From Patescibacteria group bacterium (GTDB lineage: Bacteria; Patescibacteriota; Microgenomatia; Daviesbacterales; UBA10151): 49,731 nt of DNA. Position numbers and translations under genes: made by a program. Where the stretch lies: positions 1 to 49,731 of the forward strand of contig JAHIUE010000080.1 of the NCBI GenBank assembly GCA_018817205.1, read 5' to 3'. Shown one piece after another: positions 6,932 to 47,764 of the stretch. Positions within the stretch are counted from its first letter, which is position 1. Every line of letters begins with the position of its first letter. A model generated the notes under the pieces. That model was not told where the DNA came from. It did not search any database and worked only from the letters and a program-made list of their open reading frames with translations.

Positions 6932-7500
6932 CTAAAAACTTTATCAGGGCTTAACCCTAATTCCTCTCTTATCTTTTTAATCCTACTGGCATATTCATTA
7001 TAAATGGCTTCCGGTTTATGAAGCTTATAAAAACCTTCGGCATTTTTGTATAAAGAACAATCAAATACATCAACATCTTTTACCAATTCTACATAAGGTT
7101 CTTTGGAATAAATTTCTTTCTCGCTGTGATGATAAACTGCATCGGTTATAATTTTTATCTCATCATCTGTAAACTCTCCTATTTCCAGTAAAATTTTTTC
7201 CGCTAGTTGAGCGCCTAATGGCCCGTGATTTTTGTAGGTACCGTTAACTATTGTATAGATATCATGTAGTACACAAATCACGCTGGCTATGTCAACGTCG
7301 AGATTTCTCTTTTCCGCCAATAATCTCCCAATTTGCATACAACCTGAAGCATGCATAAATTCCCAAACTATAGAATCTTCCCGCTTTGAATCATCTATTT
7401 TTGATTCTTGTATCAGATCAATAACCCTCCTCTCAACCTTTTCAAAACGGCTTAAATCCTGTCCTTTATAATGATGAAAATCTTTTAATTTATTATTCAT
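6928..7500 (-). CDS. HD-domain phosphohydrolase
   Basis: HD signature (VICVLHDIYT) and later HH (AVYHHSEKE). ORF track 6928-7584 was trimmed to ATG 7500 because 7506-7580 is a tRNA. There is a 4-nt overlap with the next gene. Confidence 0.75.
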   Translation of the reverse strand: MNNKLKDFHHYKGQDLSRFEKVERRVIDLIQESKIDDSKREDSIVWEFMHASGCMQIGRLLAEKRNLDVDIASVICVLHDIYTIVNGTYKNHGPLGAQLAEKILLEIGEFTDDEIKIITDAVYHHSEKEIYSKEPYVELVKDVDVFDCSLYKNAEGFYKLHKPEAIYNEYASRIKKIREELGLSPDKVFR

Positions 7501-7505
7501 AAGTT

Positions 7506-7580
7506 TGGTGGACACTGTAGGATTTGAACCTACGGCCCCCTCGATGTGAACGAGGTGCTCTACCGCTGAGCTAAGTGTCC
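7506..7580 (-). tRNA. tRNA-Val (anticodon CAC), CCA encoded
   Basis: The reverse complement folds as a cloverleaf: GGACACU-UA-GCUC-AGCGGUA-GAGC-A-CCUCG-UUCACAU-CGAGG-GGGCC-GUAGG-UUCAAAU-CCUAC-AGUGUCC-A-CCA. All four stems are Watson-Crick and the T-loop is UUCAAAU. Confidence 0.93.
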
Positions 7581-7609
7581 GCAACCAGTAAATTCTATCA
7601 CCCTACCCC

Positions 7610-32785: not shown

Positions 32786-33414
32786 TAGACGGCTCCTCTT
32801 CCCGATAAAACTGCCGGAACAGTTTTTAAGATAAGCCAAAAATCATAAAAGATCGATCTTTTTTTAACATACATGGCATCCATTTTTACTCTTTTGTCAA
32901 AATTTATTTCCGACCTACCGGTAACCTGCCAAACTCCTGTTAAGCCGGGCTTACCTGATAAAATAACTTTAACATATTTCCTGGAGGCCGGATAGTTTTT
33001 TTGCTGTTCCTCAAGTTCATAAGGGTAATAAGCCCGTGGGCCTACCAAACTCATCTCTCCCTTTAAAATATTAAGAGATTGGGGAAGTTCGTCAATCGAG
33101 TATTTTCTGATAAATTTGCCTACTCTGGTCACCCTGGGATCATTGAATATTTTATAGCCGTGTCTCTTATATTCTTCCATTAGATCGGGATTTTTTTCCA
33201 AAATCTCATGGGCATTTTGCACCATTGAACGAAACTTATAAATTCTGAACAATTTGCCGTTCTTACCCGCCCTCATTGGAGTATCGGCAAATATTGGTCC
33301 GGGCGAATCAATCGAAATTGCCAAAGCAACCAGTAATAAAAGCGGAGACAAAAAGATTAGTCCTAACAAGGACCCGATAATATCTATAAATCTTTTCAAA
33401 AAATCATAAATCAT
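32785..33414 (-). CDS. undecaprenyl-phosphate sugar phosphotransferase (bacterial sugar transferase family)
   Basis: DELPQSLNILKGEMSLVGPRA and GLTGVWQV motifs. Confidence 0.9.
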   Translation of the reverse strand: MIYDFLKRFIDIIGSLLGLIFLSPLLLLVALAISIDSPGPIFADTPMRAGKNGKLFRIYKFRSMVQNAHEILEKNPDLMEEYKRHGYKIFNDPRVTRVGKFIRKYSIDELPQSLNILKGEMSLVGPRAYYPYELEEQQKNYPASRKYVKVILSGKPGLTGVWQVTGRSEINFDKRVKMDAMYVKKRSIFYDFWLILKTVPAVLSGRGAV

Positions 33415-34408
33415 TGACTACCTCCTTAAAATTTTTTATGAAATCCTCTTTACTAAAGCGGGAGGCATTTTCACTACAATCACCAGGATCTATTTTAACT
33501 TTGTCAAGCTTAATTATAGCATCTGTTAAACTTACCACATTCTGTTGGGGAAAAAATATGCCTGTCTTATTTGGGATTACTGTTTCCAATGAGCCACCCT
33601 CGGCATAAGCAATTACAGGTTTACCTAAAGCTTGAGCCTCCAAACCAGCCAACCCAAAATCCTCAATACCGGGAACAATTAAAGCCTTACATCCTGCCAA
33701 GACTTGCAATACCATTCCCTCATCTAATCTACCGTCAATTATTTTAAGCGGGAAACCTAATTTTCTACACGCTGCCTTAGCCAAATCAAACCTTTTGTAT
33801 TTGTTCGGTCTGCCCATCACTACAAAATAACCACCATCAAAACTTTCAATACCTTTAAACCTCTCCAAATCAACGAACGGGTAAACTACCTTTGCATCCA
33901 TACCGTAAACTTTTTTAATTCTCTTCTTTGCATTCTCTGACCCTGCTAAAAATAAATCCACCCTCCGGGCGGAGATACTATCATATATTCTTAATTTCGA
34001 TAATAGGCTTTCCGCAAAACCGTAATTTTTTTCTCCGGAAAAATGCCATAAAAATCTCGGCGGAGTATGACAGTAACAAATGTGTTTAGTTTCAGGTTTC
34101 GTAATGATACTTTTTGCAAACCGGGTAGTATGGGAGATTACCAAATCAAACATAGAAAAATCAAACTGCTCAAATGCAATAGGATATAAAGGTAATAATG
34201 CCTTATACAAAGATCTCCAGCCGGGAATTTTCTGCAAAAAAGAAGTTATTATTTTTTTGGAACCAAATACTTTTGAAAGCAAAAAATTATTATTGTCAAA
34301 AACGGAAGTATAAATGGGGGCATCGGGATAAATTTCCGAAAGCCCCAACAAAACTCTTTCCGCCCCTCCCCATTGGACTAAATCATCATGTACTATCGCT
34401 ACACGCAT
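33404..34408 (-). CDS. glycosyltransferase family 4 (GT-B)
   Basis: EDFGLAGLEAQALGKPVIAY (E-x7-E region). Confidence 0.85.
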   Translation of the reverse strand: MRVAIVHDDLVQWGGAERVLLGLSEIYPDAPIYTSVFDNNNFLLSKVFGSKKIITSFLQKIPGWRSLYKALLPLYPIAFEQFDFSMFDLVISHTTRFAKSIITKPETKHICYCHTPPRFLWHFSGEKNYGFAESLLSKLRIYDSISARRVDLFLAGSENAKKRIKKVYGMDAKVVYPFVDLERFKGIESFDGGYFVVMGRPNKYKRFDLAKAACRKLGFPLKIIDGRLDEGMVLQVLAGCKALIVPGIEDFGLAGLEAQALGKPVIAYAEGGSLETVIPNKTGIFFPQQNVVSLTDAIIKLDKVKIDPGDCSENASRFSKEDFIKNFKEVVNDL

Positions 34409-35493
34409 TGCCGGTATACCTCCAAAGTTTTTTGGGCTAATGTTTTCCAGCTGAAACTTTTGTGTCTTTTTAGCCCTTTTTCTATTAGTCTAAGCCGTAA
34501 TTTTTCATCGTCCAATATTTCGGAAATCTTTTCTACCATATTATTTGTATCAAACGGATCAAAATACAAACATGCATCTCGTCCTATCTCCGGCAGGCTT
34601 CCGGCGTTTGAAGAAACCACCGGACACCCGCAAGCCATAGCTTCCAAGATTGGTATACCAAATCCTTCTTCAAAAGAAGGCAGAACAAATGCGGCGGCAT
34701 TTCTATACATAGCAACTAATTCCTCATCGGAAATCTTGCCTGTATAAATAATATCCTGATAACTGTATTCCTTTTTAATCTTCTGCCAAAAATAATGATC
34801 AGCTCCTGCCAAAACCAGTTTTAGAGTTTTGTATTTTTCCTTTAATATAAGATAAGCTTTTATTAATCCTTCTACATTTTTATGAGGGTGTGCATTGCCT
34901 ACATAAAAAATGAACGGAAAATCGAATTTTTTTGTAGCCTTGGTTCCGGGAAGTCTATCATCAACTGCCTCCGGCGTTACAACAATTTTTTCTCCGCTTA
35001 TCTTCCAATTTTCAGTTAGTTGCCCTTTCACAAAATTAGAAGGCACTAAAATTTTCGAAGATTTACTTAAAGCATTTTTTAACACAATCTTGTATCCCGC
35101 TTGTTTAATTTTATAAATAATCGGTCCATGAGTTGTTGCCCTCTCCATAGAAAAATGCTGGTGGATTAAATCATGGATAGTAACTACAAATTTTCCATTG
35201 TAAAAAAACGGCACATTAAAATGAGGAAAGTGCACCAGGTTGGGTTTGACTGAATCAAGCATCTGCGGCAGTCTAATTTGTTCCTTCACTCCATACCAGG
35301 GGAAATCTGCCAAAATCTTATGGAAATTATTCTGATACTTAAGGCTATTGAAATCTTCTTTGCAGTGAAGAATAAAATACTCATTTTCTTTATCAAGTAT
35401 TTGCAGATGAGTTATAAGATTTCTGATGTACCTACCTATTCCCGACTGCTGATACATCCGGCCGTCTATTACTATCCTTAAGGGATTTATCAT
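34399..35493 (-). CDS. glycosyltransferase family 4 (GT-B)
   Basis: EGFGIPILEAMACGCPVVSSNAGSLPE. Confidence 0.88.
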   Translation of the reverse strand: MINPLRIVIDGRMYQQSGIGRYIRNLITHLQILDKENEYFILHCKEDFNSLKYQNNFHKILADFPWYGVKEQIRLPQMLDSVKPNLVHFPHFNVPFFYNGKFVVTIHDLIHQHFSMERATTHGPIIYKIKQAGYKIVLKNALSKSSKILVPSNFVKGQLTENWKISGEKIVVTPEAVDDRLPGTKATKKFDFPFIFYVGNAHPHKNVEGLIKAYLILKEKYKTLKLVLAGADHYFWQKIKKEYSYQDIIYTGKISDEELVAMYRNAAAFVLPSFEEGFGIPILEAMACGCPVVSSNAGSLPEIGRDACLYFDPFDTNNMVEKISEILDDEKLRLRLIEKGLKRHKSFSWKTLAQKTLEVYRQCV

Positions 35494-36677
35494 TTTTTAC
35501 CTAAATCCTCATAAATTGCACTTAATTTTTTGGCAATCGGATCCCAGTCGTATTTTTCTCTTACCATTTTCTTGGCATTTTCCGCAATGCGTTGATATTT
35601 TTTTTGATCGGTAAGTAAATCAATCGCTGCTTGGGCAATGTCTGCCGGATCATCCTGTATGATAACCTCTACTCCATCCTGGGCCTCTGTTCCTCTAATA
35701 CCTATGGATGTAGTTACTACCGGAAGTCCGGAAGCAAATGCTTCAAAGTTTTTATACCTGGTTCCTCCTCCCCCATAAATCGGAGCAACTAAAAGTGAAG
35801 CTTTTTGGTAAACCTCTCTTACGTCATCCACTTCTAAAATCCGTATATCGGAAGAAGTGAAATTCGAAAAAAAAGATTTAGCTTCTTTGCCAACTATCCA
35901 AAGTTTAGCTTCCGACAGTCCCATCTTGATTTTCGGCCAGACTTTTTTTATTAACACGTCTACCGCTTCCCTATTCTGCAGCCAAGTGAAATTTCCTAAA
36001 TAAAGTATGATGGGATTAACAGACCTAGACGCAATAGAACGACCGAAAAATTTACTATCCACCCCATTAGGTACAATATCAACGTCAAGTTCGTTTGTCT
36101 CACTCAGCATTGTCTTTTTATCCTCCTCCGACATTGCCACCACTCTTTTTGCTATCTTCCAATATTTCAGCTCCCAATACTTCATTTTCACCACATCAAT
36201 ATACAAGAACGGTTTGATCAAAGGTAAATTAAATCCATCTACAAAGTGTTTGTAAACTAAATATTCTATGGTCTGCTCCACCAAAAGAATCGGGATGGAA
36301 GTTTTGGGAATATGAGGCATTACATAAAAAGTCTCGGCATGGATTAAATCAAATTTTTCCTCTCTTAATTTATCTGCAATTGCATCCTTCTCGCCTTTAG
36401 CCCAATTTCTTATGACCAAAAACGGATAAAAACTGAACCCTGTCCGGAGTATATTGCCGGCAGTCCAGGGTTTTTCAGACCTTGGGAAAACCTGTACTTC
36501 TTTGCAATATTTTTGAAGTTCACCGACATATTTCCTTTCAGTATTACTCTTGACTAAACAGAACAGGGTGATTTCATGCCCCAAAGACGCAAGTCTTTTT
36601 ATTAAGTTGTATGAACGGGTTTGACCTCCTGTGAGAAGAGGGTAAGGGAGGTATGGTGTCAACATTAAAAGTTTCAT
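35490..36677 (-). CDS. glycosyltransferase family 4 (GT-B)
   Basis: N-terminal GT4 donor-less domain (GGQTRSYNL) and C-terminal GGGTRYKNFEAFASGLPVVTT. Confidence 0.8.
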   Translation of the reverse strand: MKLLMLTPYLPYPLLTGGQTRSYNLIKRLASLGHEITLFCLVKSNTERKYVGELQKYCKEVQVFPRSEKPWTAGNILRTGFSFYPFLVIRNWAKGEKDAIADKLREEKFDLIHAETFYVMPHIPKTSIPILLVEQTIEYLVYKHFVDGFNLPLIKPFLYIDVVKMKYWELKYWKIAKRVVAMSEEDKKTMLSETNELDVDIVPNGVDSKFFGRSIASRSVNPIILYLGNFTWLQNREAVDVLIKKVWPKIKMGLSEAKLWIVGKEAKSFFSNFTSSDIRILEVDDVREVYQKASLLVAPIYGGGGTRYKNFEAFASGLPVVTTSIGIRGTEAQDGVEVIIQDDPADIAQAAIDLLTDQKKYQRIAENAKKMVREKYDWDPIAKKLSAIYEDLGKK

Positions 36678-38146
36678 AAGGGAATTTTTGGTTTCGTCAA
36701 ATCTGCAATCACAAAGTCTTCTGTATCTTCCAAAACTTCAAAATGTTCCATCACCCATTTAGTCCTATCATCTTTTACGGTAGATACATAACTTGTAACC
36801 CCATAATCAGTTACTAGTTCCACAAGTGGCAGCATTTCGGCAGCAAACCCAGGACGGTTTGTTTGATACAAAAAGGCAGTGTCGCCATTATACGGTGCTA
36901 AAACTACCGCCCGTTTTGGTAATATTTGGTCGGCCCTTTTGCCGGCTTCAACGATGGCGGGATTATTCACTTTATAAAATTCTTTGACAACTTTGTAGCC
37001 AAAATAGAAGGACAAGGGGAATAAAAGCAAAACCAGTAGTATGGTCCAAATTCTTGGTAAAAAGGCGGCGTTCCCCTTCAAGAGCCGGATAAAACCTAAA
37101 GAGAAAAAAATACTGGCTACCGGCACAAAAAGTATTTGGTAGTAATTATGCCTGACATTACCTGTTGCAAAAACTGCCATGAATAATAAAGAAGACAAAG
37201 CCCAAAAATGTAAGAAGTAATTCCCATTTTTTGGTCTACTGATAAATCCAACGAGGAACAGTACTAATCCTGTTGCGCCCAAAATTTCCCGTCCCATTCT
37301 TTCTGATATTATCCACCACCAAAATGCCGGCCTAAACCGAATCCCATCACCATTAAGTAACCAATTAGCTGCCGGAATCCCTTGGGGTTGTTGAAATATC
37401 CAAAGTCTCCATAAAGCAAACGGCAGTAAAGCAATTGCCGTCAAAAGTATAAACTTAATCCAGAATCTTTTCTCGCCTCGTTTGAAAACCGGATAAAGTA
37501 ACGGCAAAAAGAAAAAAATTGCCCATGGCTTGATTAAAAATGCTATAACGGAAAAAATAAATCCTAAAACCGCATGTAAGTTTCTATTACTTTCTATCCA
37601 TTTGTCCATAAAATAAATCATCCCTAAAGCAAAGAAAACAAAAGTCGCCTCAGGCAATGTGGTCCTTGAGAAAAAAACATTAAAAGGTAATAAGGCAAAA
37701 GTAAAGGCCGTTACAAATCCCGCAAAAATACCTGCATATTTTTTAGCTATAAAGAATATTAATGCTATTGAACCTAAAGAAAAAATTACGGAAACAAGAC
37801 GGTGATATACTTCGTTAATCCCAAAGAAAACATATAAAGGATAAACCGCGATATTATAAACTGGAAACTCAACAAACCGGAACCTGGCAGGATTTATAAT
37901 AGGATTTTCCGCCACTCCCGACATATCATCATATTTTGGGAAAAATGGGTTAAATCCCTCTTTGATAAAATTTCTTGTCACTGCCGCAGTATCAGCCTGC
38001 CGCCATGAATGCCAATCGGCAATGGGCGAGTCAATTCTGTAAAGTCTTACCAAAAGACCAAAGAAAATTATAATTAGTAGCCAAAAATATTGGTTTAAGA
38101 TCGTCAGATCGCAAGCTTTGCTTACAAATACTTTAAATATTTTCAT
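36674..38146 (-). CDS. GT-C fold membrane glycosyltransferase (ArnT/PMT, GT39/GT83-like)
   Basis: 490 aa polytopic; WHSWRQADTAAVTRNF first-loop motif typical of the PMT_2/ArnT-like family. Confidence 0.65.
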   Translation of the reverse strand: MKIFKVFVSKACDLTILNQYFWLLIIIFFGLLVRLYRIDSPIADWHSWRQADTAAVTRNFIKEGFNPFFPKYDDMSGVAENPIINPARFRFVEFPVYNIAVYPLYVFFGINEVYHRLVSVIFSLGSIALIFFIAKKYAGIFAGFVTAFTFALLPFNVFFSRTTLPEATFVFFALGMIYFMDKWIESNRNLHAVLGFIFSVIAFLIKPWAIFFFLPLLYPVFKRGEKRFWIKFILLTAIALLPFALWRLWIFQQPQGIPAANWLLNGDGIRFRPAFWWWIISERMGREILGATGLVLFLVGFISRPKNGNYFLHFWALSSLLFMAVFATGNVRHNYYQILFVPVASIFFSLGFIRLLKGNAAFLPRIWTILLVLLLFPLSFYFGYKVVKEFYKVNNPAIVEAGKRADQILPKRAVVLAPYNGDTAFLYQTNRPGFAAEMLPLVELVTDYGVTSYVSTVKDDRTKWVMEHFEVLEDTEDFVIADLTKPKIPL

Positions 38147-39564
38147 TCCTTAAACTTTAAAGCAGCCAAATTAAGTCCCAGTATCATCCAAAAAAGAGAT
38201 GCCACTTTGGAAGCCTCAAATACATCAATAAATAGACCGTTTACCAAAAATGCAAAAAGCATAGCTAAAACCCCTGCTGAAAAATATCTCACCAGCCTAC
38301 TGTCGTACCTGCTTGCATTAAATATCCTTTTCCCCACCTCAGTTAAAATTAAAAATAACGAGAGCGTTCCCAATATTCCCACTTCTCCTAAAGAACGCAA
38401 GAAATCGTTATCTGTTGCTATGTCTAAAGAAGCATAGCCTGTACCGAGAAGCGGATTTTTTACAAAAGCTCTGATGGCTCTTGGCCATTCAATGTTATAT
38501 CTGATTGCAAAAGATCTATAAACACCAAGTTGAGTGGTATCAATAGGCTCTCCCGGAGTAATATCCGTTGCTGTTTGCCCCGAGGGAGAAGCAAAAGAAG
38601 ATGAAGATGCAGACTCACTTGAGGTCTTAATTGCCAGTGTCGGAATATTTAATTTGCTCCTTACCTGCTGGTCTTGCGTTTGACTTACGTATCTTTGTCC
38701 TCCTGAAAAAAGGTTCACAGTCGCTGTTGAAATCAACCTATCACGAAGTTGCGAGGGGTAAATTAAAATTACAACGGCCGCGATAAAAATCAGTAAAATA
38801 AATTTTGTTTTCCTCGAAAAAAGAAGGGCTAAAACCACTCCGGCAAATGCGGCAACAAAAGATATTCTTGCGGCTGTCATAATTAAGACCAAAAGAGACA
38901 AACCCCCAAGAGCTAAAATTATCAATTTCATCTTTTTAGAAACAGCGAAAAAAAGAGCAGAAAGTACGGTCAATGCCATTACCAAATATACGGCCAAGTC
39001 ATAATGTCCGGCAAAAGTAGAATTTGCTCTGGCTCCCGGAGTCAATCTCAAAATTAGACCTTTTGAAAATTCGGAATTAGTCGTAGATATAACAGGTAAA
39101 TCTAGAAACTGTTGACCTAGGGCATACAAATTCACTGAGACTACTGTTAAAGCTAAAAAGACTAGGACCCAAACAAACTGTTTTTTGCTTTTTACCACAC
39201 TTGCTACAACCGGCAGTAATAAAATAAATTCAACCCTTCTTAAGAAGTGCAGGATGCTGATATGAGGAGTTACAGTATGAGTTAAAAAAACCGCAGAAAA
39301 TGTAGAAACAAACCCAATAAAGAAAAATAGCAGCAAGCTTAGGCTTAATTTATCTTTTAGAAAACTCCTAACTTGATTCGAAATTACCAAATAAATCACC
39401 CAAAGCCCCAAAGTTAGGCCAATAATCAAATCCTCAATTCTTATGGCGACAAAAGTGCCGGTAATGTTAATTAGCGGAAATTTTGGGTATAGAGGGATAA
39501 ACACGAAAAGAAACAAAACCAAATAGAATAATATTTTTTCTAAAGTTGAGATGAATTTTTTCAT
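38143..39564 (-). CDS. O-antigen ligase/polymerase-like (Wzy_C-type) membrane protein
   Basis: 473 aa with more than 10 hydrophobic helices and one large Ser/Thr-rich loop; glycan-locus context. Confidence 0.5.
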   Translation of the reverse strand: MKKFISTLEKILFYLVLFLFVFIPLYPKFPLINITGTFVAIRIEDLIIGLTLGLWVIYLVISNQVRSFLKDKLSLSLLLFFFIGFVSTFSAVFLTHTVTPHISILHFLRRVEFILLLPVVASVVKSKKQFVWVLVFLALTVVSVNLYALGQQFLDLPVISTTNSEFSKGLILRLTPGARANSTFAGHYDLAVYLVMALTVLSALFFAVSKKMKLIILALGGLSLLVLIMTAARISFVAAFAGVVLALLFSRKTKFILLIFIAAVVILIYPSQLRDRLISTATVNLFSGGQRYVSQTQDQQVRSKLNIPTLAIKTSSESASSSSFASPSGQTATDITPGEPIDTTQLGVYRSFAIRYNIEWPRAIRAFVKNPLLGTGYASLDIATDNDFLRSLGEVGILGTLSLFLILTEVGKRIFNASRYDSRLVRYFSAGVLAMLFAFLVNGLFIDVFEASKVASLFWMILGLNLAALKFKE

Positions 39565-40115: not shown

Positions 40116-40757
40116 CTATTGGAACAGCCTTGCCCTGCCTAATTTATAATGAAGGTCCTTTATTTTCCTCTCCCCTATTGCTTCAGCAGGCACACCTCCA
40201 ACTATCGCATACTGGGAAACATCTTTTGTAACAACCGCCCCAGCGGCAATTATCGCTCCTTTCCCTATTTTTACCCCGGGCAGAATAATCGCCCTCGGAC
40301 CTATGAAAACATAATCCCCTACTTCAACAGAAGCGGATATTGCATGGAAATCTTCGGAATTTATATCGTGTTCACTGTTATAGATCATTACACCCGAAGC
40401 AATATCCACATGATTACCGATAATAAGTTTATCCCTGCCGTCCAAAAAAGCATTATCGCCAATAATTGTCCCCTCGCCAATGACAATATTGGGAAGGTAA
40501 TAAAAACGGGCTCCAACATGAATTCTTGATCCTTTTCCAATCCTTATTCCAGCCAGGCTGTACATAAATAAACGGAAGTAGTGACAAGGTATCAATCCTG
40601 CCCAAGTTAAAAGCATCAATTCAAAATCCAATATCCAGTTAAAGACCCTGTTTACGGCTTTTTTGGAAGCCTCTTGTGTACTTAATGGTTTTCCCATCCT
40701 GTCCTGAAATAGAGCCATATATAAGTTAATTATATGGGGAAAGACTAGTATAAGCAA
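40116..40757 (-). CDS. hexapeptide-repeat (LbH) O-acetyltransferase
   Basis: Repeated [LIV]G..xx hexapeptides (IGKGSRIHVGARF, IGEGTIIGDNAF, IGNHVDIASGVMI, IGKGAIIAAGAVV) and VGGVPA. Start may be ATG 40718. Confidence 0.85.
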   Translation of the reverse strand: MLILVFPHIINLYMALFQDRMGKPLSTQEASKKAVNRVFNWILDFELMLLTWAGLIPCHYFRLFMYSLAGIRIGKGSRIHVGARFYYLPNIVIGEGTIIGDNAFLDGRDKLIIGNHVDIASGVMIYNSEHDINSEDFHAISASVEVGDYVFIGPRAIILPGVKIGKGAIIAAGAVVTKDVSQYAIVGGVPAEAIGERKIKDLHYKLGRARLFQ

Positions 40758-40760
40758 ACC

Positions 40761-41456
40761 CTATGTGTAATATTTCCTAAGTAAGGCCATTGCCAAAATT
40801 TCAACACAGTTATAAATAGGCAAGGAATATCTCTTTGGAAAAACTAAAGGCAACTCTGTACACCCTAAAATAATTCCTTGCGCCCCTTCCTTTTTTAAAG
40901 AGTTTGCGACCCTTAAAAGCGTTTTTTCATCACTATATGTATTTTTTTCTTTTAAAACATTCTCAACAATATCCTTAAATAGTCTTTGTATATTTTCTGT
41001 CGGGATAAGAACATCTACACCTTTTTTCTTCAAAGCTTCCTGATATAATCCCTCTCTTATTGTAGCAGGAGAAGCCAATAACCCAATTCTATTTACATTA
41101 TCTTTACTTACTTGCAATGCAACTTCCTTAATCATAGAAAGAAATGGAGTTTTTGACACTTGTTGAAGATCATTAAGTAATAAGTGAGCTGTATTGCATA
41201 CAATACAAAAAGATAAAACATCACATTTATCTAATTGAATTACTCTTTGCTTAAGCATTTTCAATGCAATCTTCTTTTCGTAATCATTAGCAATAAAACC
41301 TGGTATAGGAATGGAGTCAAGAATAATTTCCGGAAAATCAGCATTGTTTTTTACACCAAAAAACTTCACTGACAATTCTATCAGTAACTTGCATAAATAT
41401 AATGACGCTTGAGGTCCTATTCCTCCTAAAATACCAATAGCTTTTTTACTTTTCAT
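40761..41456 (-). CDS. Asp/Glu/hydantoin-racemase family protein (aspartate-racemase-like)
   Basis: GILGGIGPQAS, and both catalytic Cys boxes CNTAH and LGCTELPL. The ATG overlaps the radical-SAM stop by 4 nt. Confidence 0.88.
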   Translation of the reverse strand: MKSKKAIGILGGIGPQASLYLCKLLIELSVKFFGVKNNADFPEIILDSIPIPGFIANDYEKKIALKMLKQRVIQLDKCDVLSFCIVCNTAHLLLNDLQQVSKTPFLSMIKEVALQVSKDNVNRIGLLASPATIREGLYQEALKKKGVDVLIPTENIQRLFKDIVENVLKEKNTYSDEKTLLRVANSLKKEGAQGIILGCTELPLVFPKRYSLPIYNCVEILAMALLRKYYT

Positions 41457-42688
41457 ACTTTAAAGATGGTTTTCTCCATTTCTCCAAGAGCCAACCCTGG
41501 CCTGGTATCAAGACCACACTTTATTACTCCTTCTTGTCTTAATAAATCCAAAGAGCAATCACCGCATAAATCCGGCATATCGTCTATTGTCTTTTTCTCT
41601 TCATTAAATATACAATTTAGTTGACAAAGGCGATAACAACCTGTTGTCACTAAACCTGTCCACCAGCAACCCGAACCTCGACATAGCTCCTTACAGCTTT
41701 GAATTCTAAAACCCTGTTCTAAAAATGCTTGCCTTATTGAGTTTTGCTCTATCTGTCCGAAAGTTCCTGATAAGACATTTCCAAATTTAGCATAGTTTGT
41801 ACTACCTCTGCCCATATTAGTACATGGCAAATAAAGCCCATCATTATTGATCTGACCTCCTTTTTTTATCATATCGCATGCTTCATCATAGGCCTGAGGC
41901 GAAACAGCATCATTGTAGGTTGGTAAGATTAATCCTATTTCTCTATCTATCTCTATAAATTCCTCCATTTGGACAACAATCCTTTTGGTTAGCAACGGAT
42001 AAGTAGTCAACCACTCAATCTGCCTATCGTAGCTTTCATTGGGTGGAGATACATATTCCATGATTGGTTTAGTACCCAAACTTTCTCTCGCCCACCTAAA
42101 TACTCTGCTCAAATTGCCGTTATTCATTACAGCATCAGTTAAACAGCATTGCATCATCAATCTATCTCCTCCTTTTTCTTTAAAGATCCTCTCTGCATTT
42201 CTCCATGCCGCATGACTATTTTGAAGAGTACCGAGTTTACCTACACTAACGTCCTGAATCTTTTCCGCTAAAGTATCATCATCTATAGTATGTCTATGCA
42301 TTAATAAACTTACGCCCGGGATAAGCACTTGACGCGCATAGGCTTCATCAGCAAACCTTAATCCATGGCTTATTAACAATACGAACTTAAACCCTAAATT
42401 AACTGCTTCCTGTAATAATTGAGGTAAATCGGGATTTTGTGTGGGTTCCGCACCCAAGAAGTATACTTCAGTAACTCCGGCTTCTCTTAATTTACGCATC
42501 GTTTTGGAAGCAATTTCCGGTAGTAAATAACCTGCTTTTCCAGCCCCGGGAGGTCGATAGCAATGAGGACACGCTAAATCACAAGCTTCTGACGCATCAA
42601 GACCAGCACCATTAATTTTAACTGGTCCGTCTTTTTGACCAGTAAATCCTCTAAATTCGTTTATTGATTCTAATTTGCCTATTGGCAT
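41453..42688 (-). CDS. radical SAM enzyme with Cys-rich SPASM/twitch-like C-terminal domain
   Basis: CDLACPHCY fits CxxxCxxC; GAEPTQNPDL fits the GGEP-like motif. The C-terminal cluster is CKELCRGSGCWWTGLVTTGCYRLCQLNC...CGDC. AGGAGAGGA RBS at 42691-42699. Confidence 0.85.
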   Translation of the reverse strand: MPIGKLESINEFRGFTGQKDGPVKINGAGLDASEACDLACPHCYRPPGAGKAGYLLPEIASKTMRKLREAGVTEVYFLGAEPTQNPDLPQLLQEAVNLGFKFVLLISHGLRFADEAYARQVLIPGVSLLMHRHTIDDDTLAEKIQDVSVGKLGTLQNSHAAWRNAERIFKEKGGDRLMMQCCLTDAVMNNGNLSRVFRWARESLGTKPIMEYVSPPNESYDRQIEWLTTYPLLTKRIVVQMEEFIEIDREIGLILPTYNDAVSPQAYDEACDMIKKGGQINNDGLYLPCTNMGRGSTNYAKFGNVLSGTFGQIEQNSIRQAFLEQGFRIQSCKELCRGSGCWWTGLVTTGCYRLCQLNCIFNEEKKTIDDMPDLCGDCSLDLLRQEGVIKCGLDTRPGLALGEMEKTIFKV

Positions 42689-42912: not shown

Positions 42913-43170
42913 CTAATTTACTACTTTAAATCTTCCTTTCTGCAGTTCTCTTGAACCGCGGGTTACTGTTGCAACCCCAACTCCTAAACTTTCTGCAATT
43001 CCCTGCTGGGGAATACCCTGTTTTAGCATTTTAACAATACGCAATCTCATTGGAATTTCCAGCCGTTCCTTTGGAGTTAAAATCCCCAAAAGAAAATCTT
43101 CCATCTTGTCTTCTCTTTTAATAGTTAATAATAAATTAATCAACTCTTGAAGTTGCTTATTTCTAACCAT
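42913..43170 (-). CDS. TrpR-family (TrpR / YerC-YecD-like) repressor
   Basis: 85 aa. LLGILTPKERLEIPMRLRIVKMLKQGIPQQGIAESLGVGVATVTRGSRELQ aligns with E. coli TrpR [53 protein letters not shown] (recalled sequence). Confidence 0.85.
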   Translation of the reverse strand: MVRNKQLQELINLLLTIKREDKMEDFLLGILTPKERLEIPMRLRIVKMLKQGIPQQGIAESLGVGVATVTRGSRELQKGRFKVVN

Positions 43171-43173
43171 TGC

Positions 43174-43207
43174 GTACTAGTATACTAGTACAAGAGTATT
43201 GTGTCAA
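43174..43207 (-). promoter_or_regulatory. promoter with an overlapping perfect 18-bp trp-operator-like palindrome
   Basis: Minus strand: TTGACA (43202-43207), 17-nt spacer, TATACT (43179-43184), then 8 nt to ATG 43170. The palindrome GTACTAGTATACTAGTAC (43174-43191) covers the -10. Confidence 0.75.
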
Positions 43208-43234: not shown

Positions 43235-43636
43235 TTATAGTTGCAGGTCTGTGATGGCTCTTGCTAAATCTTCAATCGTACTCCACTTGAATGATTGGGA
43301 TGCTATCGCCGGCACATACGTTTTCGTAACGGTGTCTTTAGTTGCCGCAATAATTGGGACCCTTTTCGCCATGCAGTAACCTACCTCAATCAACATCCCT
43401 TCACTTTTGTTATCTGAAGTCTGAACCACAAAGAGAAAATCTGCATTGTCGATAATGCCAAAAGCGTGTTCCATGATTTGGCGGACACCAAGAGATTTAC
43501 CTTCTATGGCCTCATCAAAGAAAGTACTGTATGCCTCGATCCCTCGACCTTTGAACGCCTCCCTGATAGCAATCAGTACAGGTTCGACTGCCTGAGGATC
43601 CTCACCAGTCGAGCGGTAAGCAATAAAGGCTTTCAT
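43235..43636 (-). CDS. nucleoside 2-deoxyribosyltransferase-like / TIR-like flavodoxin-fold protein
   Basis: 133 aa. MKAFIAYRSTGED start, DNADFLFVV, and SEGMLIEVGYCMAKRVPIIA resemble the NDT family pattern (aD.vva.l....s.Gt..E.GyA.a.gkPv). About 50 % GC. Confidence 0.55.
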   Translation of the reverse strand: MKAFIAYRSTGEDPQAVEPVLIAIREAFKGRGIEAYSTFFDEAIEGKSLGVRQIMEHAFGIIDNADFLFVVQTSDNKSEGMLIEVGYCMAKRVPIIAATKDTVTKTYVPAIASQSFKWSTIEDLARAITDLQL

Positions 43637-43739
43637 AATAAGCTAATTATAGCAAATGCAAAAAGATTGTCCCAGCCTACGCTTTACTTATTATGAAATT
43701 AAAATATAATAAGCTTCATAAATTGAACTATAGAGTCAT

Positions 43740-44819
43740 ATGAGCGCCTGCGAACAATTGGATACAGTAGTTACCCGACGATTAGATGAGTATGCATCAG
43801 CCGTTACCACACCTGATGCTCCTGAAGTTGCCTTACCCGGAGGTATCGAGATAATTAATACCGAGTTCACGCCAGATACCTTGGGTATGAAGGTTGTTTT
43901 CACCGGCACGCGGAACGACGGTAAGGTAGCCACCTTTGAAACCGGCAGCTTTTTAGATAATGGCGGGGTCGAAAACGCTTCCGATCGACATGATATTTGT
44001 GTATCGACTGCCGGCGGTTGCACTAAGGCTTGCCGGTTCTGTTCGGTGCCATATTCTGAACTTGGCTTTGAACGCCTACTCACCGCCGAAGAATTGGTGG
44101 TCCAGACTATCTATACGATTCTGGAACGAAATCGCGGGGCTTCTATGCCAAATGCTCTAGGCTTCATGGGTAATGGTGAACCATCAGATAACGCCGCCGT
44201 CATCCCGGCAGTATGTTACTTAGCTGACAAACCTGAGCTAAATATAGAAAGAGTTACCTTTTCGACGATCGGCGAAAATATAGCCGGCATTGGTAAAATG
44301 GCCAGGAGTTTTGCTCAGCTCGATATGCGAACCATTATGCAATTTAGTCTGCATGCCGCCGATGAGACAAAACGCCGCTCAATCATACCAGGTCGAAAAC
44401 CACTTGATAAGATTCTAAAGGCGATCGATGGATACGGTGAAGTTACCGGTGAACCGGTAAAGTTCAATGTCGCACTCATGGATGGCACCTATGATTTCAA
44501 AGGCTTTACTAATGCTTCGCCAGAGGATGCTCGAATGTTGGCGCAAATCCTTACGGCACCAAGTGCCGTTTCGGGCAATCCCATCAGACGGCTCCTCAAG
44601 CTATCCGCCTACAATAGTGTTCCAGGTATACCATTTGAGCCGGCGTCATCTGTCGCAGTAGAAGCTTTTGTGGCTATTTTAGCTGAACATGGTATAACTG
44701 ATATTCAAAGGTTTCGGGGAAGTGGTATAGAAATTAATGAACAAAAAACTATTGGCGGCTTCGCTTGTGGACAGCTCAGAGCCACCACACCTAATACCCT
44801 AGCGAAAGTTCATCAATAA
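43740..44819 (+). CDS. RlmN/Cfr-family radical SAM methyltransferase-like enzyme lacking the N-terminal RNA-binding domain
   Basis: ICVSTAGGCTKACRFCS matches RlmN LCVSSQVGCALECKFCS, including the Cys118 equivalent. Also FMGNGEP, VTFSTIG, FSLHA, and C-terminal FACGQL (Cys355 equivalent). 359 aa. Confidence 0.8.
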   Translation: MSACEQLDTVVTRRLDEYASAVTTPDAPEVALPGGIEIINTEFTPDTLGMKVVFTGTRNDGKVATFETGSFLDNGGVENASDRHDICVSTAGGCTKACRFCSVPYSELGFERLLTAEELVVQTIYTILERNRGASMPNALGFMGNGEPSDNAAVIPAVCYLADKPELNIERVTFSTIGENIAGIGKMARSFAQLDMRTIMQFSLHAADETKRRSIIPGRKPLDKILKAIDGYGEVTGEPVKFNVALMDGTYDFKGFTNASPEDARMLAQILTAPSAVSGNPIRRLLKLSAYNSVPGIPFEPASSVAVEAFVAILAEHGITDIQRFRGSGIEINEQKTIGGFACGQLRATTPNTLAKVHQ

Positions 44820-45571
44820 GAATCAACGGCGGTAGCCGGTTTTTGGGTACTGACGAATAGGTGTAAGAATGGGAAAGATAAGCGGTCGGCGGTATGATAC
44901 CTATCGCCTAAGATTGTAACCACTTCGTCCGCTCTTTCCATGAAAGCATCGTTTCTCGCTCGCTCACCGTTAGAGGCCAGGAAGGCCATAGCCATTATCA
45001 TTTGAGTTACAGTGTCGGCTGTCAAGGTGCTGGTGACGTTTTGAATCTCAGTTTCTCCCTTAGCTTGCAAAGCACGTAGACAATCATGCAAGCTGTCATT
45101 AAATTGCTCACTATAACCAAGCCCGACATGGTCAAGTAGTTGGCTCCAGTCATCCTGCTTGATGCCGAGGTGGGTGACCACCAGCAAATGTCCGCCGGGT
45201 TTGACTAGTCCCCAGGCCGGGGGAACTAGCGTGGCGTGCTCACCGGCTGTGTGGGAAATGACATGGGACATCAGCACTAGGTCGTACAAACCCTTAACCT
45301 CTGTAGGAAACACTTCCTCAATAACCTGTTTGCCGGCCTGACGCAACCGGGCGGCGTACTGCGGGTTCTGCTCAATGGCCACATAATCCTCAACCATTTC
45401 TGAAAGAGGCAGAGCTACTTGGCCGTCGCCAGCGCCAATGTCGAGCAACGAGTTAGCATTATAGCGAATGATGTAGTCAGAGAATTTCGCAACATAAATT
45501 TGCTTTTCATCGGTACACTGCAGAAGGCTTTCAAGGCCTTGATAGTAGAGAACTTCAAAAGTCTGCGGCAT
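44813..45571 (-). CDS. class I SAM-dependent methyltransferase
   Basis: LLDIGAGDGQVA (motif I), VAIEQNP (motif II), YDLVLMSHVISH, LKPGGHLLV. Converges on the RlmN-like gene with a 7-nt overlap. Confidence 0.8.
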   Translation of the reverse strand: MPQTFEVLYYQGLESLLQCTDEKQIYVAKFSDYIIRYNANSLLDIGAGDGQVALPLSEMVEDYVAIEQNPQYAARLRQAGKQVIEEVFPTEVKGLYDLVLMSHVISHTAGEHATLVPPAWGLVKPGGHLLVVTHLGIKQDDWSQLLDHVGLGYSEQFNDSLHDCLRALQAKGETEIQNVTSTLTADTVTQMIMAMAFLASNGERARNDAFMERADEVVTILGDRYHTADRLSFPFLHLFVSTQKPATAVDSY

Positions 45572-45581
45572 ATATTGTGAG

Positions 45582-45609
45582 ATTATAGCTTATAACCAAA
45601 TTATGTCAA
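45582..45609 (-). promoter_or_regulatory. consensus sigma70 promoter of the methyltransferase gene
   Basis: Minus strand: TTGACA (45604-45609, overlapping the stop of the upstream GT4 gene), 16-nt spacer, TATAAT (45582-45587), then 10 nt to ATG 45571. Confidence 0.55.
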
Positions 45610-46742
45610 ACCTTAAGTGTAACTTTTTCAAAAACTTTTAGTACACTTCTGGCCATTTTGGACCAGGAAAATTTTCGGGCTTGGATAATTCCTGCTTTAG
45701 AATATTTTTGGCACAACTTATTATCCGTTGTCACTATCCTTATTGCCTGTTCTATCTGATCAACAGAGTAAGGATCAACCAGAAGTCCTGCTTTCCCCAC
45801 CACTTCGGGAAGAGATGAAACATTGGAAACAACCACCGGAACACCGGAGGCCATTGCCTCAACTACCGGTATCCCAAAACCTTCCCATAGCGATGGCAGG
45901 ATAAATGCTTGAGCTCCCGCAAGAAGCAAAGGCAGATTTTTAATCGGAACAAACCCCAAAAACTTTACTCTATTTTCAATCCCGAGACTTTGGGGAGTCT
46001 TCAATATCTCTTCATACATCCAACCTTCTTTGCCTTCTCCCTCAGTTTTTCCCACAATAACAAGCTGTATTTGGTCTTCTGTTCTGGCAAACGCCTCAAT
46101 AAGTCTTATTAAATTTTTCCTTGGCTGCAGAGTCCCTATATATATAATGTAGTTACTCTCTATTTTATATTTCTTTTTTACTGTTTTAATTCTGAACTCT
46201 GAATTCTGAATTCTAAATTGTTCCCGGTCATAACCTGGATAAGCTACGGTAATTTTTTCTTTTGGCACTTTGTACTCTTTACAAATATCCTCTTTGGAAA
46301 ACTGGGAGATAGTAATTATATAATCCGCATTTTCAACAGAAAATTTTGTCCAATTTTTAAGTTTATATAAATCTTTCTTGAGAAAAGTTTCTGGAAAATG
46401 TAAAAAAGACAGATCAAATACTGTTACTATCTTTTTAACCGATGCCGGTGAAAATCTTGGAATATAATGCGTCGGCGAAAAGAATATATCAGGCTTATCT
46501 TTTGCAGAATATAAGGCCAAAGGTAAAGCGATTCTAGTCCAGAACTTCTCGGGTTTTAAAATTCTATATTTCCATCCTGCTCGTTCTCTTGGTAAATCCT
46601 CAAGCGGCGGGTTTGGCAAAAGAACCGTGTAATCATTAATCTGATCATTTTCCTCCAAATGCCGGAGTAACTCATATGCCACTTGTGAAGATCCCAATCT
46701 TTGCTCAACATTTGCTTCATATCCATCAATCCAAATTCTCAT
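45606..46742 (-). CDS. glycosyltransferase family 4 (GT-B)
   Basis: [28 protein letters not shown]. Confidence 0.88.
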
Positions 46743-47764
46743 TCCGTCAACCTTTCATAAACTTTTACTGTTTGCTGTGCGGCTTTTTCCCAGGAAAATT
46801 GCTTAACTCTCTCAAAACCTTTTTTTATTAAATCCTGTCTTAACACATTGTCATTTATTATCACATTAAGTTTCTCTCTTATATCCTTTACTTTATAAGG
46901 ATCGGCATATAAAGCTGCATCTCCTCCTACCTCCGGCATGGAAGATACACTCGAGGTAATAACCGGAAGTCCTACCGAAAATGCATCCAGTATGGGAATA
47001 CCAAAACCTTCGTAAAGTGAAGGGTAAAGTAAAACTTGCGCTGAAGCATAAAGTAATTCCAACTCTTCTGTACTCAACCAGGGGAGAGTAATACCTGCGA
47101 TTACCAAATTATAATCTCGGCAGATCTCTTTTACTCTTGTTAAATTTCTTCTCTCCCCTACCCCTCCTATTGCCAATACAAACCTATCCGGCAGCTTATA
47201 CTTCTCCCTAAATTTTTTAATCTTTTCATCAGATTGTGGTCTATAATTGCCGGTCGGCCCTTCATAAATTACTGTTATTTTATCTTCCGGAATATTTGAA
47301 ACTTGCAGCAGATCCTTCTTGGTAGACTCTGAAACTGCAACCACGCAATCTATCTCTTTTTCTACCAGTTTTAATCGTCTTTTGTGAATATCAACAATTT
47401 TCGGATGTGACCACTGAGGATATTTCAAAGGCACAACGTCATGATAGGTTGTCACTTTCTTTGTCTTACTCGGAGGTTGAATCCAATCAGACGAGTGAAA
47501 AATGTCTATGGGTCCAATAAATCTCTCAATTGGTACTTTTCGCCATCTGTTAAAGAAAGGTTCAAAAAGAGTTGGAGGAAGTTTAAATGACTTTACATTT
47601 TTAAGACCTCCTTTATATGATTTTCGCAGTGAAGAGTAGAAATAAACCATCTCAAGGTTGGAAAGTAAAGATAGCTTTTCAGCTAAATTTTTTACATAAG
47701 TTGCAACACCACCCTGATGGGCAAGCTGCGATATATCCATACCCACTCGAATATTTTTATCCAT
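46739..47764 (-). CDS. glycosyltransferase family 4 (GT-B)
   Basis: EGFGIPILDAFSVGLPVITSSVSSMPEV. Confidence 0.88.
   Translation of the reverse strand: MDKNIRVGMDISQLAHQGGVATYVKNLAEKLSLLSNLEMVYFYSSLRKSYKGGLKNVKSFKLPPTLFEPFFNRWRKVPIERFIGPIDIFHSSDWIQPPSKTKKVTTYHDVVPLKYPQWSHPKIVDIHKRRLKLVEKEIDCVVAVSESTKKDLLQVSNIPEDKITVIYEGPTGNYRPQSDEKIKKFREKYKLPDRFVLAIGGVGERRNLTRVKEICRDYNLVIAGITLPWLSTEELELLYASAQVLLYPSLYEGFGIPILDAFSVGLPVITSSVSSMPEVGGDAALYADPYKVKDIREKLNVIINDNVLRQDLIKKGFERVKQFSWEKAAQQTVKVYERLTE

Follow-up and report, generated by a model that had tools for sequence, protein, structure and literature searches.

A horizontally mobile gene cassette in a patescibacterial glycan locus encodes an RlmN/Cfr-like radical SAM enzyme and may modify free purine nucleotides

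Introduction

What three compositionally foreign genes do in the middle of a bacterial glycan locus is the question raised by a 49,731-nucleotide stretch of DNA from a Patescibacteria group bacterium (GenBank assembly GCA_018817205.1, contig JAHIUE010000080.1), which was analyzed at its full length and is referred to here as the window. The genes occupy positions 43235-45571 (hereafter the block, or the cassette) and encode a protein of the NDT superfamily, an enzyme of the radical S-adenosylmethionine (SAM) type related to RlmN and Cfr, and a class I SAM-dependent methyltransferase. An earlier sequence-only reading of the window had proposed that the block is of foreign origin, that its genes form a set, and that they carry out nucleoside or nucleotide chemistry rather than housekeeping methylation of rRNA. 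The analysis presented here shows that the block is horizontally mobile and that the radical SAM and methyltransferase genes are the stable core of the cassette, whose substrates are most likely free purine nucleotides and not rRNA or tRNA.

Gene content and composition of the block

The three open reading frames (ORFs) that had been reported for the block were all found at the same positions, and its features are as follows.

43235-43636, minus strand: gene for an NDT-superfamily protein of 133 amino acids, a predicted nucleotide/nucleoside N-glycosidase (Pfam PF05014).
43637-43739, no strand: AT-rich intergenic region separating the divergent NDT-fold and radical SAM genes, with promoter-like sites on both strands.
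43740-44819, plus strand: gene for a putative class A (RlmN/Cfr-type) radical SAM methyl synthase of 359 amino acids, without the N-terminal accessory domain.
44813-45571, minus strand: gene for a predicted class I SAM-dependent methyltransferase of 252 amino acids, of the small-molecule type.
45582-45609, minus strand: promoter-like site immediately upstream of the methyltransferase gene, a consensus match only.

The radical SAM gene is the sole plus-strand gene of the block, and its 3′-end overlaps that of the methyltransferase gene by 7 nucleotides. Within the divergent intergenic region, sigma-70-like sequences, which are consensus matches only, occur at 43683-43710 (plus strand) and 43673-43646 (minus strand), and the arms of a perfect 12-nucleotide inverted repeat are at 43631-43642 and 43687-43698. 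The site upstream of the methyltransferase gene (TTGACA, 16 nucleotides, TATAAT) agrees with the consensus at 12 of 12 positions and falls in the 34-bp gap between this gene and a family 4 glycosyltransferase (GT4) gene; the acquired methyltransferase gene may have brought a strong promoter of its own.

The G+C content of the block is 47.1%, compared with 37.8% in the remainder of the window and 38.2% in the window as a whole, so that the shift noted from the sequence is real, although its size had been overstated (about 50% versus 25-35%); of the two 60-nucleotide lines quoted in its support, the count of 31 G+C was correct, whereas the other line contains 12 and not 13. The NDT-fold, radical SAM and methyltransferase genes have G+C contents of 45.3, 47.6 and 49.9%, respectively, and their G+C contents at third codon positions (GC3) are 0.45, 0.41 and 0.53, compared with a mean of 0.33 (standard deviation 0.05) for the other 42 ORFs. 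The GC and tetranucleotide comparison that had been suggested as a check was performed with all non-overlapping segments of the same length in the window as the reference, and it identified the block as the compositionally most deviant segment (GC z = 4.1; tetranucleotide distance z = 10.6; composition-normalized tetranucleotide usage z = 8.9). The GC skew falls to about zero over the same island.

These values bear on one alternative explanation of the locus, namely that it holds no functional unit and that three unrelated genes are adjacent by chance, their G+C content being raised by amino-acid composition or by expression. The smaller GC bumps of the window do coincide with housekeeping genes, which are also moderately GC-rich (ParB and signal peptidase, FtsZ and FtsA), and the genes of the block, lying in the orientations minus, plus, minus, are not one operon. 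Against this explanation, GC3 is raised in the block genes as well (z = 1.6-3.9) and not only the G+C content at the first and second codon positions, the deviation in tetranucleotide usage persists after normalization for composition, and the genes recur together in several unrelated contexts, diverging in parallel, as described below. Chance adjacency is thus already contradicted by the composition and co-occurrence results and is very improbable.

The flanks of the block contain glycan genes on both sides, as had been noted: on the left (33404-39564) are three GT4 genes, a PMT_2 gene of the GT-C type and a Wzy_C gene, and on the right (45606-47764) are two GT4 genes. The nearest neighbors on the left are of other kinds and encode a TrpR-like regulator, a second radical SAM protein, an Asp/cysteate-type racemase and a hexapeptide acyltransferase. 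The lack of an integrase, a tRNA target and flanking repeats, which had likewise been noted, was confirmed: no recombinase or integrase is encoded by the ORFs neighboring the block, Rfam and ARAGORN searches of the window returned a single hit, a tRNA-Val gene at 7506-7580, so that no tRNA gene lies within 35 kb of the block, and repeats flanking the block are short matches at chance level. Of the usual marks of a genomic island, the block therefore shows the compositional one and lacks the integrase, the attachment site and the direct repeats. The TrpR-like neighbor was used to look for an empty site, and every contig retrieved with it came from the same organism and already had the block. 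Nearly all of the roughly 45 kb between 4912 and 49730 is transcribed from the minus strand (cell-division, cell-wall and glycan genes), and the radical SAM gene at 43740-44819 is the only sizeable plus-strand gene in this range.

Horizontal mobility of the cassette

Relatives of the radical SAM protein were recovered from public assemblies; their loci are labelled L001, L003 and so on, and individual proteins P0005, P0012 and so on. The cassette genes were found to hold a G+C content of approximately 45-49% irrespective of the host. In two high-GC hosts, GC3 is 0.59-0.72 in the housekeeping flanks and 0.39-0.46 in the cassette genes (L014), and 0.70-0.72 and 0.40-0.46, respectively (L015), whereas in a low-GC neighborhood (L017) the radical SAM gene has 49% G+C and its neighbors have about 30%. 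The anomaly thus has the same sign in L017 as in the window and the opposite sign in L014 and L015, which bears out the proposed foreign origin. Because the island changes sign with the host, neither amino-acid composition nor expression level explains it, and because the genes keep their composition in both low-GC and high-GC hosts, the block must move horizontally.

Nucleotide comparisons are in line with such movement. Over the radical SAM gene only (43716-44814), the window is 92.4% identical to L017; the flanks are unrelated, and a purF fragment remains downstream of the gene in L017. The window and L013 share 84% identity in the NDT-fold gene, 80% in the radical SAM gene and 76% in the methyltransferase gene, with the same order and orientation; L013 has in addition a HIT-like gene between the NDT-fold and radical SAM genes and a purF gene between the radical SAM and methyltransferase genes, the latter being bona fide (418 bits against a cut-off of 350). 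Since L013 has the same order plus these two genes, the trio in the window is, on this comparison of gene order, a trimmed version of the longer cassette seen there.

A version of the cassette without the radical SAM gene was observed in L035 (12382-16747), where genes for a HAD protein, a methyltransferase, a HIT-like protein, a second methyltransferase, an NDT protein, a GT2-like protein and a Methyltransf_24 protein directly adjoin type IV secretion/conjugation-like genes (TrbC, TrbL, PrgI, TraC-like and VirB4-like). These neighbors are a possible transfer vehicle.

Co-occurrence of the cassette genes

The sequence-only reading had called for a check of whether the trio co-occurs in other genomes, and the genes do recur together outside the window. 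The radical SAM and methyltransferase genes are adjacent in at least nine distinct loci (the window, L013, L014, L015, L020, L011, L027, L029 and L031), and this adjacency extends to relatives of only 31-36% identity, namely the Peribacteria-type loci L011, L027 and L029 as well as L031. The identities of the two proteins to their window counterparts drop in parallel (81/73, 67/60 and 63/56% for the radical SAM protein and the methyltransferase, respectively). In five loci the pair is joined by an NDT-fold gene. Genes of this fold accompany the cassette genes in the window, L013, L014, L015, L020 and L017 and comprise three subtypes: the window type (window, L013 and L035), a type of 146 amino acids (L014, L015 and L020) and a PF15891-like type (L017). 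Two further pairs of radical SAM and NDT proteins (P0005/P0084 and P0017/P0086) are suggested by contigs of matching length. The fixed three-gene unit that had been implied for the window does not hold, as the core is the pair of radical SAM and methyltransferase genes, the NDT partner is of three subtypes and the window trio is itself shortened relative to L013.

The trio was also looked for beside distant members of the radical SAM family, and the candidates were rejected: the neighbors of 133 and 241 amino acids in L003 and the Methyltransf_21 neighbor in L001 are not homologous to the NDT-fold protein and the methyltransferase of the window. Judged by these homologies, the trio is limited to closer relatives of the window radical SAM protein.

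The radical SAM enzyme

The radical SAM protein of the window carries the CxxxCxxC motif at C94/C98/C101, which alignments show to be invariant across its family and canonical RlmN, and its C87 and C343, both also invariant, align with C118 and C355 of Escherichia coli RlmN. These last two cysteines are the defining feature of the class A radical SAM methylases, whose targets are sp2 carbons (PMC9692996). The family profile matches RlmN and Cfr structures with E-values of 1e-30 to 1e-37, over the core only, the alignments starting at about residue 100 of those structures; by these profile matches, the protein is a true RlmN/Cfr homologue. It also matches the Pfam Radical_SAM family. Its scores against the equivalog models are 96.2 bits for RlmN (TIGR00048; cut-off 290) and 82 bits for Cfr (TIGR04432; cut-off 550).

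Several properties set the family apart from canonical RlmN. The N-terminal alpha-helical domain PF21016 (RlmN_N) was matched neither in the window protein nor in any of the family clusters (38/38), whereas the same search found it in 35 of 36 full-length canonical RlmN hits. The family has motifs of its own (FETGSF and MGNGEP), invariant residues peculiar to it (K51, R284 and K287) and an insertion around residues 250-280. The window protein is acidic (net charge -9, isoelectric point (pI) 5.15), and the mean net charge and pI are -7.8 and 5.8 in the family, compared with +6.1 and 8.9 in canonical RlmN hits, which are uniformly basic (Mann-Whitney p = 6e-12); such acidity is unexpected for an enzyme that holds a large RNA. 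The family is also rare: 5.8 billion sequences yielded about 38 clusters at 90% identity, and 1.84 billion yielded about 35-45 representatives above the score level of canonical RlmN. Its hosts are scattered (Pacebacteria, Peribacteria, Saccharibacteria and a metagenome-assembled genome of Syntrophomonas). A role other than housekeeping rRNA methylation, as had been proposed, is favored by the missing RlmN_N domain, a score of a third of the RlmN cut-off, the acidic charge and the scatter of some 40 clusters, and the current automatic annotation of the family genes as "RlmN" is probably wrong. Full-text literature searches found no description of this family, of a nucleotide-acting RlmN/Cfr homologue or of a class A methylase with a non-RNA substrate.

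Fusions and neighbors tied to nucleotide metabolism

Clade members without the N-terminal domain also occur as fusions with a Ham1/RdgB-type pyrophosphatase for non-canonical purine nucleoside triphosphates (P0140), with NUDIX hydrolases (P0149, P0156 and P0199) and with P-loop kinases (P0012, P0013 and P0021), and the catalytic cysteines are retained in all of the fused forms. Fusions of an RlmN-like radical SAM protein to these three types of enzyme seem to be undescribed. Unfused relatives adjoin NUDIX genes (L001, L003 and L012) and Ham1 genes (L009, L011, L027 and L029), and other neighbors include genes for a HAD nucleotidase-like protein (L017), an HD-domain protein (L008), a bona fide APS kinase (L015), a xanthine/uracil permease (L031) and, at a distance of two genes, a thymidylate kinase (L006). 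These fusions and neighbors support the broad notion of nucleotide chemistry and are the strongest argument that the substrate or the product would be a free, probably purine, nucleotide.

In Pacebacteria (L003-L005 and L007) and on two metagenome contigs (L023 and L024), a family member and a NUDIX gene were observed within a stretch of approximately 7.5 kb that also contains a gene for ThrRS and several unknown ORFs and that splits the usually contiguous rplK-rplA/rplJ cluster.

The methyltransferase and the case for an RNA substrate

The methyltransferase matches the Pfam families Methyltransf_23, Methyltransf_11 and Methyltransf_12, with a borderline DREV match, and is a generic class I enzyme whose family comprises 23 clusters. 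Its structural model (predicted local distance difference test (pLDDT) score 88.8) was compared with known structures using Foldseek, and the top matches were HvrF, TTHA0223 and histamine N-methyltransferase (TM-scores of 0.69-0.70), followed by trans-aconitate methyltransferase, BioC and JHAMT; neither Erm nor KsgA appeared among the top 50. In the Erm and KsgA family models, the match was confined to residues 26-91, with 18-23 bits against cut-offs of 171-800, and the RrnaAD score was 17.6 against 24. The protein is strongly acidic. On its modeled fold, it resembles small-molecule enzymes and not Erm or KsgA. Histamine N-methyltransferase, the best match by fold, and DREV/METTL9, the borderline Pfam match, both methylate imidazole nitrogens, and the matches to these two are at most a hint of a similar reaction here.

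An alternative reading of the pair is that both enzymes modify RNA, possibly in resistance, by a Cfr/RlmN-like C-methylation of an adenosine in rRNA or tRNA and an Erm/KsgA-like N-methylation of rRNA, and that the genes spread as cfr and erm genes do. Horizontal mobility is indeed typical of those genes, the core and both mechanistic cysteines of the radical SAM protein are those of RlmN and Cfr, and the methyltransferase has weak matches to the Erm/KsgA models and to a PHROG annotated as "tRNA methyltransferase". A substitute RlmN is also conceivable because rlmN is only patchily conserved in bacteria of the Candidate Phyla Radiation (CPR; PMC12641178). The radical SAM protein, however, lacks the N-terminal RlmN/Cfr domain, scores 82-96 bits against equivalog cut-offs of 290-550 and is acidic where canonical RlmN is uniformly basic; the Erm/KsgA matches cover only the SAM-binding stretch, far below the cut-offs, the fold neighbors of the methyltransferase are small-molecule enzymes, and the fusions to Ham1, NUDIX and kinase domains are hard to square with an rRNA methylase. 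Taken together, this evidence makes an RNA-modifying pair unlikely.

The NDT-fold protein

The sequence-only reading had described the 133-amino-acid protein as NDT/TIR-like, of which the first half stood and the second did not. The match to Pfam PF05014 (Nuc_deoxyrib_tr) is marginal (30.2 bits against a gathering score of 28.8), and this domain is present in the precomputed annotation of all full-length members of the family. In a Foldseek search of the Protein Data Bank (PDB) with the AlphaFold model (pLDDT 93.9), the best matches were the cytidine monophosphate (CMP) N-glycosidases MilB and BcmB, DNPH1 and NDTs, with query TM-scores of at most 0.79; these proteins dominate the top 50 matches, among which no TIR structure was present, and no Pfam TIR match was found. 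A phmmer search of PDB sequences with the protein returned nothing, and the family profile returned only weak NDT matches. D66, S78, G80 and E84 are invariant in the window-type family, and D66, G80 and E84 are invariant across all three subtypes; E84 and D66 align with the nucleophile E88 and with D70 of the Chroococcidiopsis NDT. Arg8 is nearly invariant, and its position and that of Ser78 may correspond to those of phosphate ligands in DNPH1. Given the fold matches and the conserved E84 and D66, the protein is assigned to the NDT fold and not to TIR, and is predicted to be active as an N-glycosidase or transferase.

Homologues of the NDT-fold protein were observed in two other settings: next to, and co-directional with, a gene for DNA-3-methyladenine glycosylase I (tag) in L040 (8001-9048), and next to, and convergent with, lexA in L041 (8001-9050). 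Such neighbors are a hint that purine nucleotides carrying methyl groups or damage are what this subfamily handles.

Proposed chemistry

We give about even chances to the reading that the block is an accessory cassette whose enzymes C-methylate a purine nucleotide of the free pool and go on to process the product. On the shared core, motifs and cysteines, the window radical SAM enzyme is expected to act as a methyl synthase on an aromatic sp2 carbon, by the chemistry of RlmN and Cfr. One cysteine would first be methylated by SAM and this methyl group then activated by a 5′-deoxyadenosyl radical; the resulting methylene would be added to an sp2 carbon of the purine, and the second cysteine would resolve the adduct. 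The carbon methylated by the known RlmN/Cfr enzymes is C2 or C8 of adenine. The class I methyltransferase would then attach a further methyl group, of the ordinary kind (N-, O- or S-linked), to the same small molecule, and the NDT-fold enzyme would finally cut the N-glycosidic bond of the modified nucleotide. The cut would either release the methylated base and ribose 5-phosphate, as MilB does with hydroxymethyl-CMP, or, as with DNPH1, take the modified nucleotide out of the pool. The pyrophosphatases and kinases of the relatives would interconvert phosphorylation states. In proposing this scheme, we infer the chemistry, the substrate, the methylated position, the order of the steps and the purpose, which might be that of an antimetabolite, a signal, a surface or cofactor building block, or an antiviral nucleotide.

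A number of observations weigh against this scheme. No NDT partner occurs in L001, L003, L006 or the Peribacteria loci; L035 has an NDT gene and a methyltransferase gene with no radical SAM gene within 8 kb; NDT homologues of approximately 55% identity occur without the radical SAM gene in L040 and L041; and the radical SAM and methyltransferase genes of the window are convergent and are thus not co-transcribed. The known class A radical SAM methylases, moreover, all act on RNA (PMC9692996), a fact that equally favors the RNA-modifying pair. Domain loss and an acidic pI are only indirect arguments on the substrate, and, the active site being common to the RNA enzymes, an RNA or even a protein substrate is conceivable. 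Finally, the recurrent proximity of glycan genes could mean that the substrate is a nucleotide sugar or a glycan.

This last point leads to another reading, in which the position of the block is functional and the cassette modifies a nucleotide-activated sugar or makes an unusual base or nucleoside for a surface glycan. In addition to the GT4/GT-C/Wzy locus of the window, relatives lie beside GT2-like and Methyltransf_24 genes (L013, L017, L022 and L035), GT2 genes (L001) and a gene for a sugar-1-phosphate nucleotidyltransferase (L014), and those of Peribacteria lie beside genes for DegT aminotransferases, SPASM radical SAM enzymes, a PIG-L deacetylase and an epimerase. The pathways to blasticidin and mildiomycin, in which a MilB/BlsM-type glycosidase frees a base for coupling to a UDP-sugar, provide a precedent. 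The composition of the cassette is nevertheless unlike that of the surrounding glycan genes, and some relatives lie outside glycan contexts, between rplJ and rplA (L003), close to enolase and UvrA (L006) or next to a permease and a LuxR regulator (L031); transferred genes commonly land in glycan loci, and RlmN-type chemistry targets aromatic sp2 carbons, not sugars. We rate a role in the glycan locus as unlikely, although the earlier view that the position is accidental also went too far: with relatives beside GT2, sugar nucleotidyltransferase and amino-sugar genes, a glycan or nucleotide-sugar link is possible.

The same nucleotide chemistry could instead serve an anti-phage or antagonistic system, in which a viperin-like nucleotide analogue poisons a foreign polymerase while NUDIX, Ham1 and NDT enzymes protect the producer or tune its pool. 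The sporadic distribution of a mobile cassette, the house-cleaning nucleotide hydrolases alongside it and the type IV secretion genes adjoining it in L035 fit such a role, and the fusions and associations of the radical SAM protein with nucleotide kinases parallel the viperin-kinase arrangements in PADLOC. Against it, no model of PADLOC-DB v2 matched the radical SAM or NDT-fold protein, the match of the methyltransferase to mad2 reflects a generic domain, and no other defense genes are visible around the block in the window. Scans of IMG/VR with the radical SAM, methyltransferase and NDT profiles gave one weak partial methyltransferase match only and are uninformative on defense. We rate an antiviral or antagonistic function as distinctly unlikely. 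The two readings overlap with the proposed scheme in that surface glycans and antiviral defense are possible purposes of one nucleotide chemistry. A phage origin of the block was also considered and rejected, PHROGs giving weak generic matches only and IMG/VR being essentially empty of matches.

Tentatively, and at somewhat less than even odds, we propose further that this clade comprises the first class A methyl synthases that act on free nucleotides, that with their partners they would make a new C-methylated, possibly doubly methylated, purine nucleotide or base, and that CPR bacteria exchange the cassette and use its product as an antimetabolite, antiviral, signal or building block. If so, the known class A chemistry would be extended by a sister clade that works on the nucleotide pool, an enzyme could be named for C-methylated purines such as derivatives of 2- or 8-methyladenine, and a small mobile piece of secondary nucleotide metabolism would be added to the CPR/Patescibacteria, whose genomes are minimal and which rely on scavenged nucleotides. 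As the cassette has only three genes, a direct test by heterologous expression is feasible.

Other features of the window

The TrpR-like gene (42913-43170, minus strand; Pfam Trp_repressor, 72 bits) is preceded by a perfect 18-bp palindrome, GTACTAGTATACTAGTAC, which lies at 43174-43191, 4 nucleotides upstream of the start codon, and overlaps a promoter-like sequence, TTGACA-17-TATACT, at 43207-43179 on the minus strand. The palindrome matches the symmetric E. coli trp operator except at the two central bases. Its spacing suggests an autoregulated, nearly leaderless transcript of the TrpR-like gene, which may also control the downstream radical SAM, racemase and acyltransferase genes. The latter form an unusual trio for a glycan locus (40116-42688, minus strand), consisting of a radical SAM protein of 411 amino acids, whose N-terminal stretch weakly matches TrsS, Tes and SPASM-type maturases, followed by the Asp/cysteate-type racemase and the hexapeptide acyltransferase; it has normal host composition and lies outside the GC island.

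The minority strand encodes a Fic/DOC-family protein (3010-4188, plus) close to the window's left end. The ORF listed at 6928-7584 (minus strand) overlaps the tRNA-Val gene (7506-7580) at its 5′-end, and therefore at least its start is probably mis-called.

Comparison with known systems

RlmN and Cfr, to our knowledge the only characterized class A radical SAM methylases, target C2 and C8 of A2503 in 23S rRNA and C2 of A37 in tRNA. The window enzyme shares with them a homologous radical SAM core, the CxxxCxxC and GxGEP motifs and both mechanistic cysteines; it differs in having about 30% identity to them, no PF21016 domain, an acidic charge, scores of at most a third of the equivalog cut-offs, and its own motifs and insertion. 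Its family is rare and horizontally scattered, and its fusions and neighbors are nucleotide hydrolases and kinases, not translation genes.

In mildiomycin biosynthesis, MilA hydroxymethylates CMP and MilB frees the modified base. The likeness to MilA-MilB and to the related BlsM and BcmB systems is that MilB and BcmB are the best structural matches of the window NDT-fold protein and that, in both systems, the gene for an enzyme that adds one carbon lies beside that for an NDT-fold N-glycosidase. The identity to MilB is approximately 16%, however, and the one-carbon enzyme is a predicted radical SAM methyl synthase here and a thymidylate-synthase homologue in the Mil system; the base is likely a purine here and not cytosine, no peptidyl-nucleoside genes are present, and the hosts are of the CPR type, not actinomycetes.

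With DNPH1 (Rcl) and the NDTs, the window NDT-fold protein shares the fold (TM-score of approximately 0.7) and the conserved Glu nucleophile and Asp, and, by analogy with DNPH1, its role may be to rid the pool of a modified nucleotide. It is barely above the Pfam threshold and has no phmmer match in the PDB. The prokaryotic viperins (pVips) are likewise radical SAM enzymes of sporadic, mobile distribution with fused or adjacent kinases, and the enzyme described here presumably shares their use of free nucleotides. They belong to another radical SAM family, none of whose models matches the window protein, and they catalyze a dehydration, whereas the reaction proposed here is a methylation.

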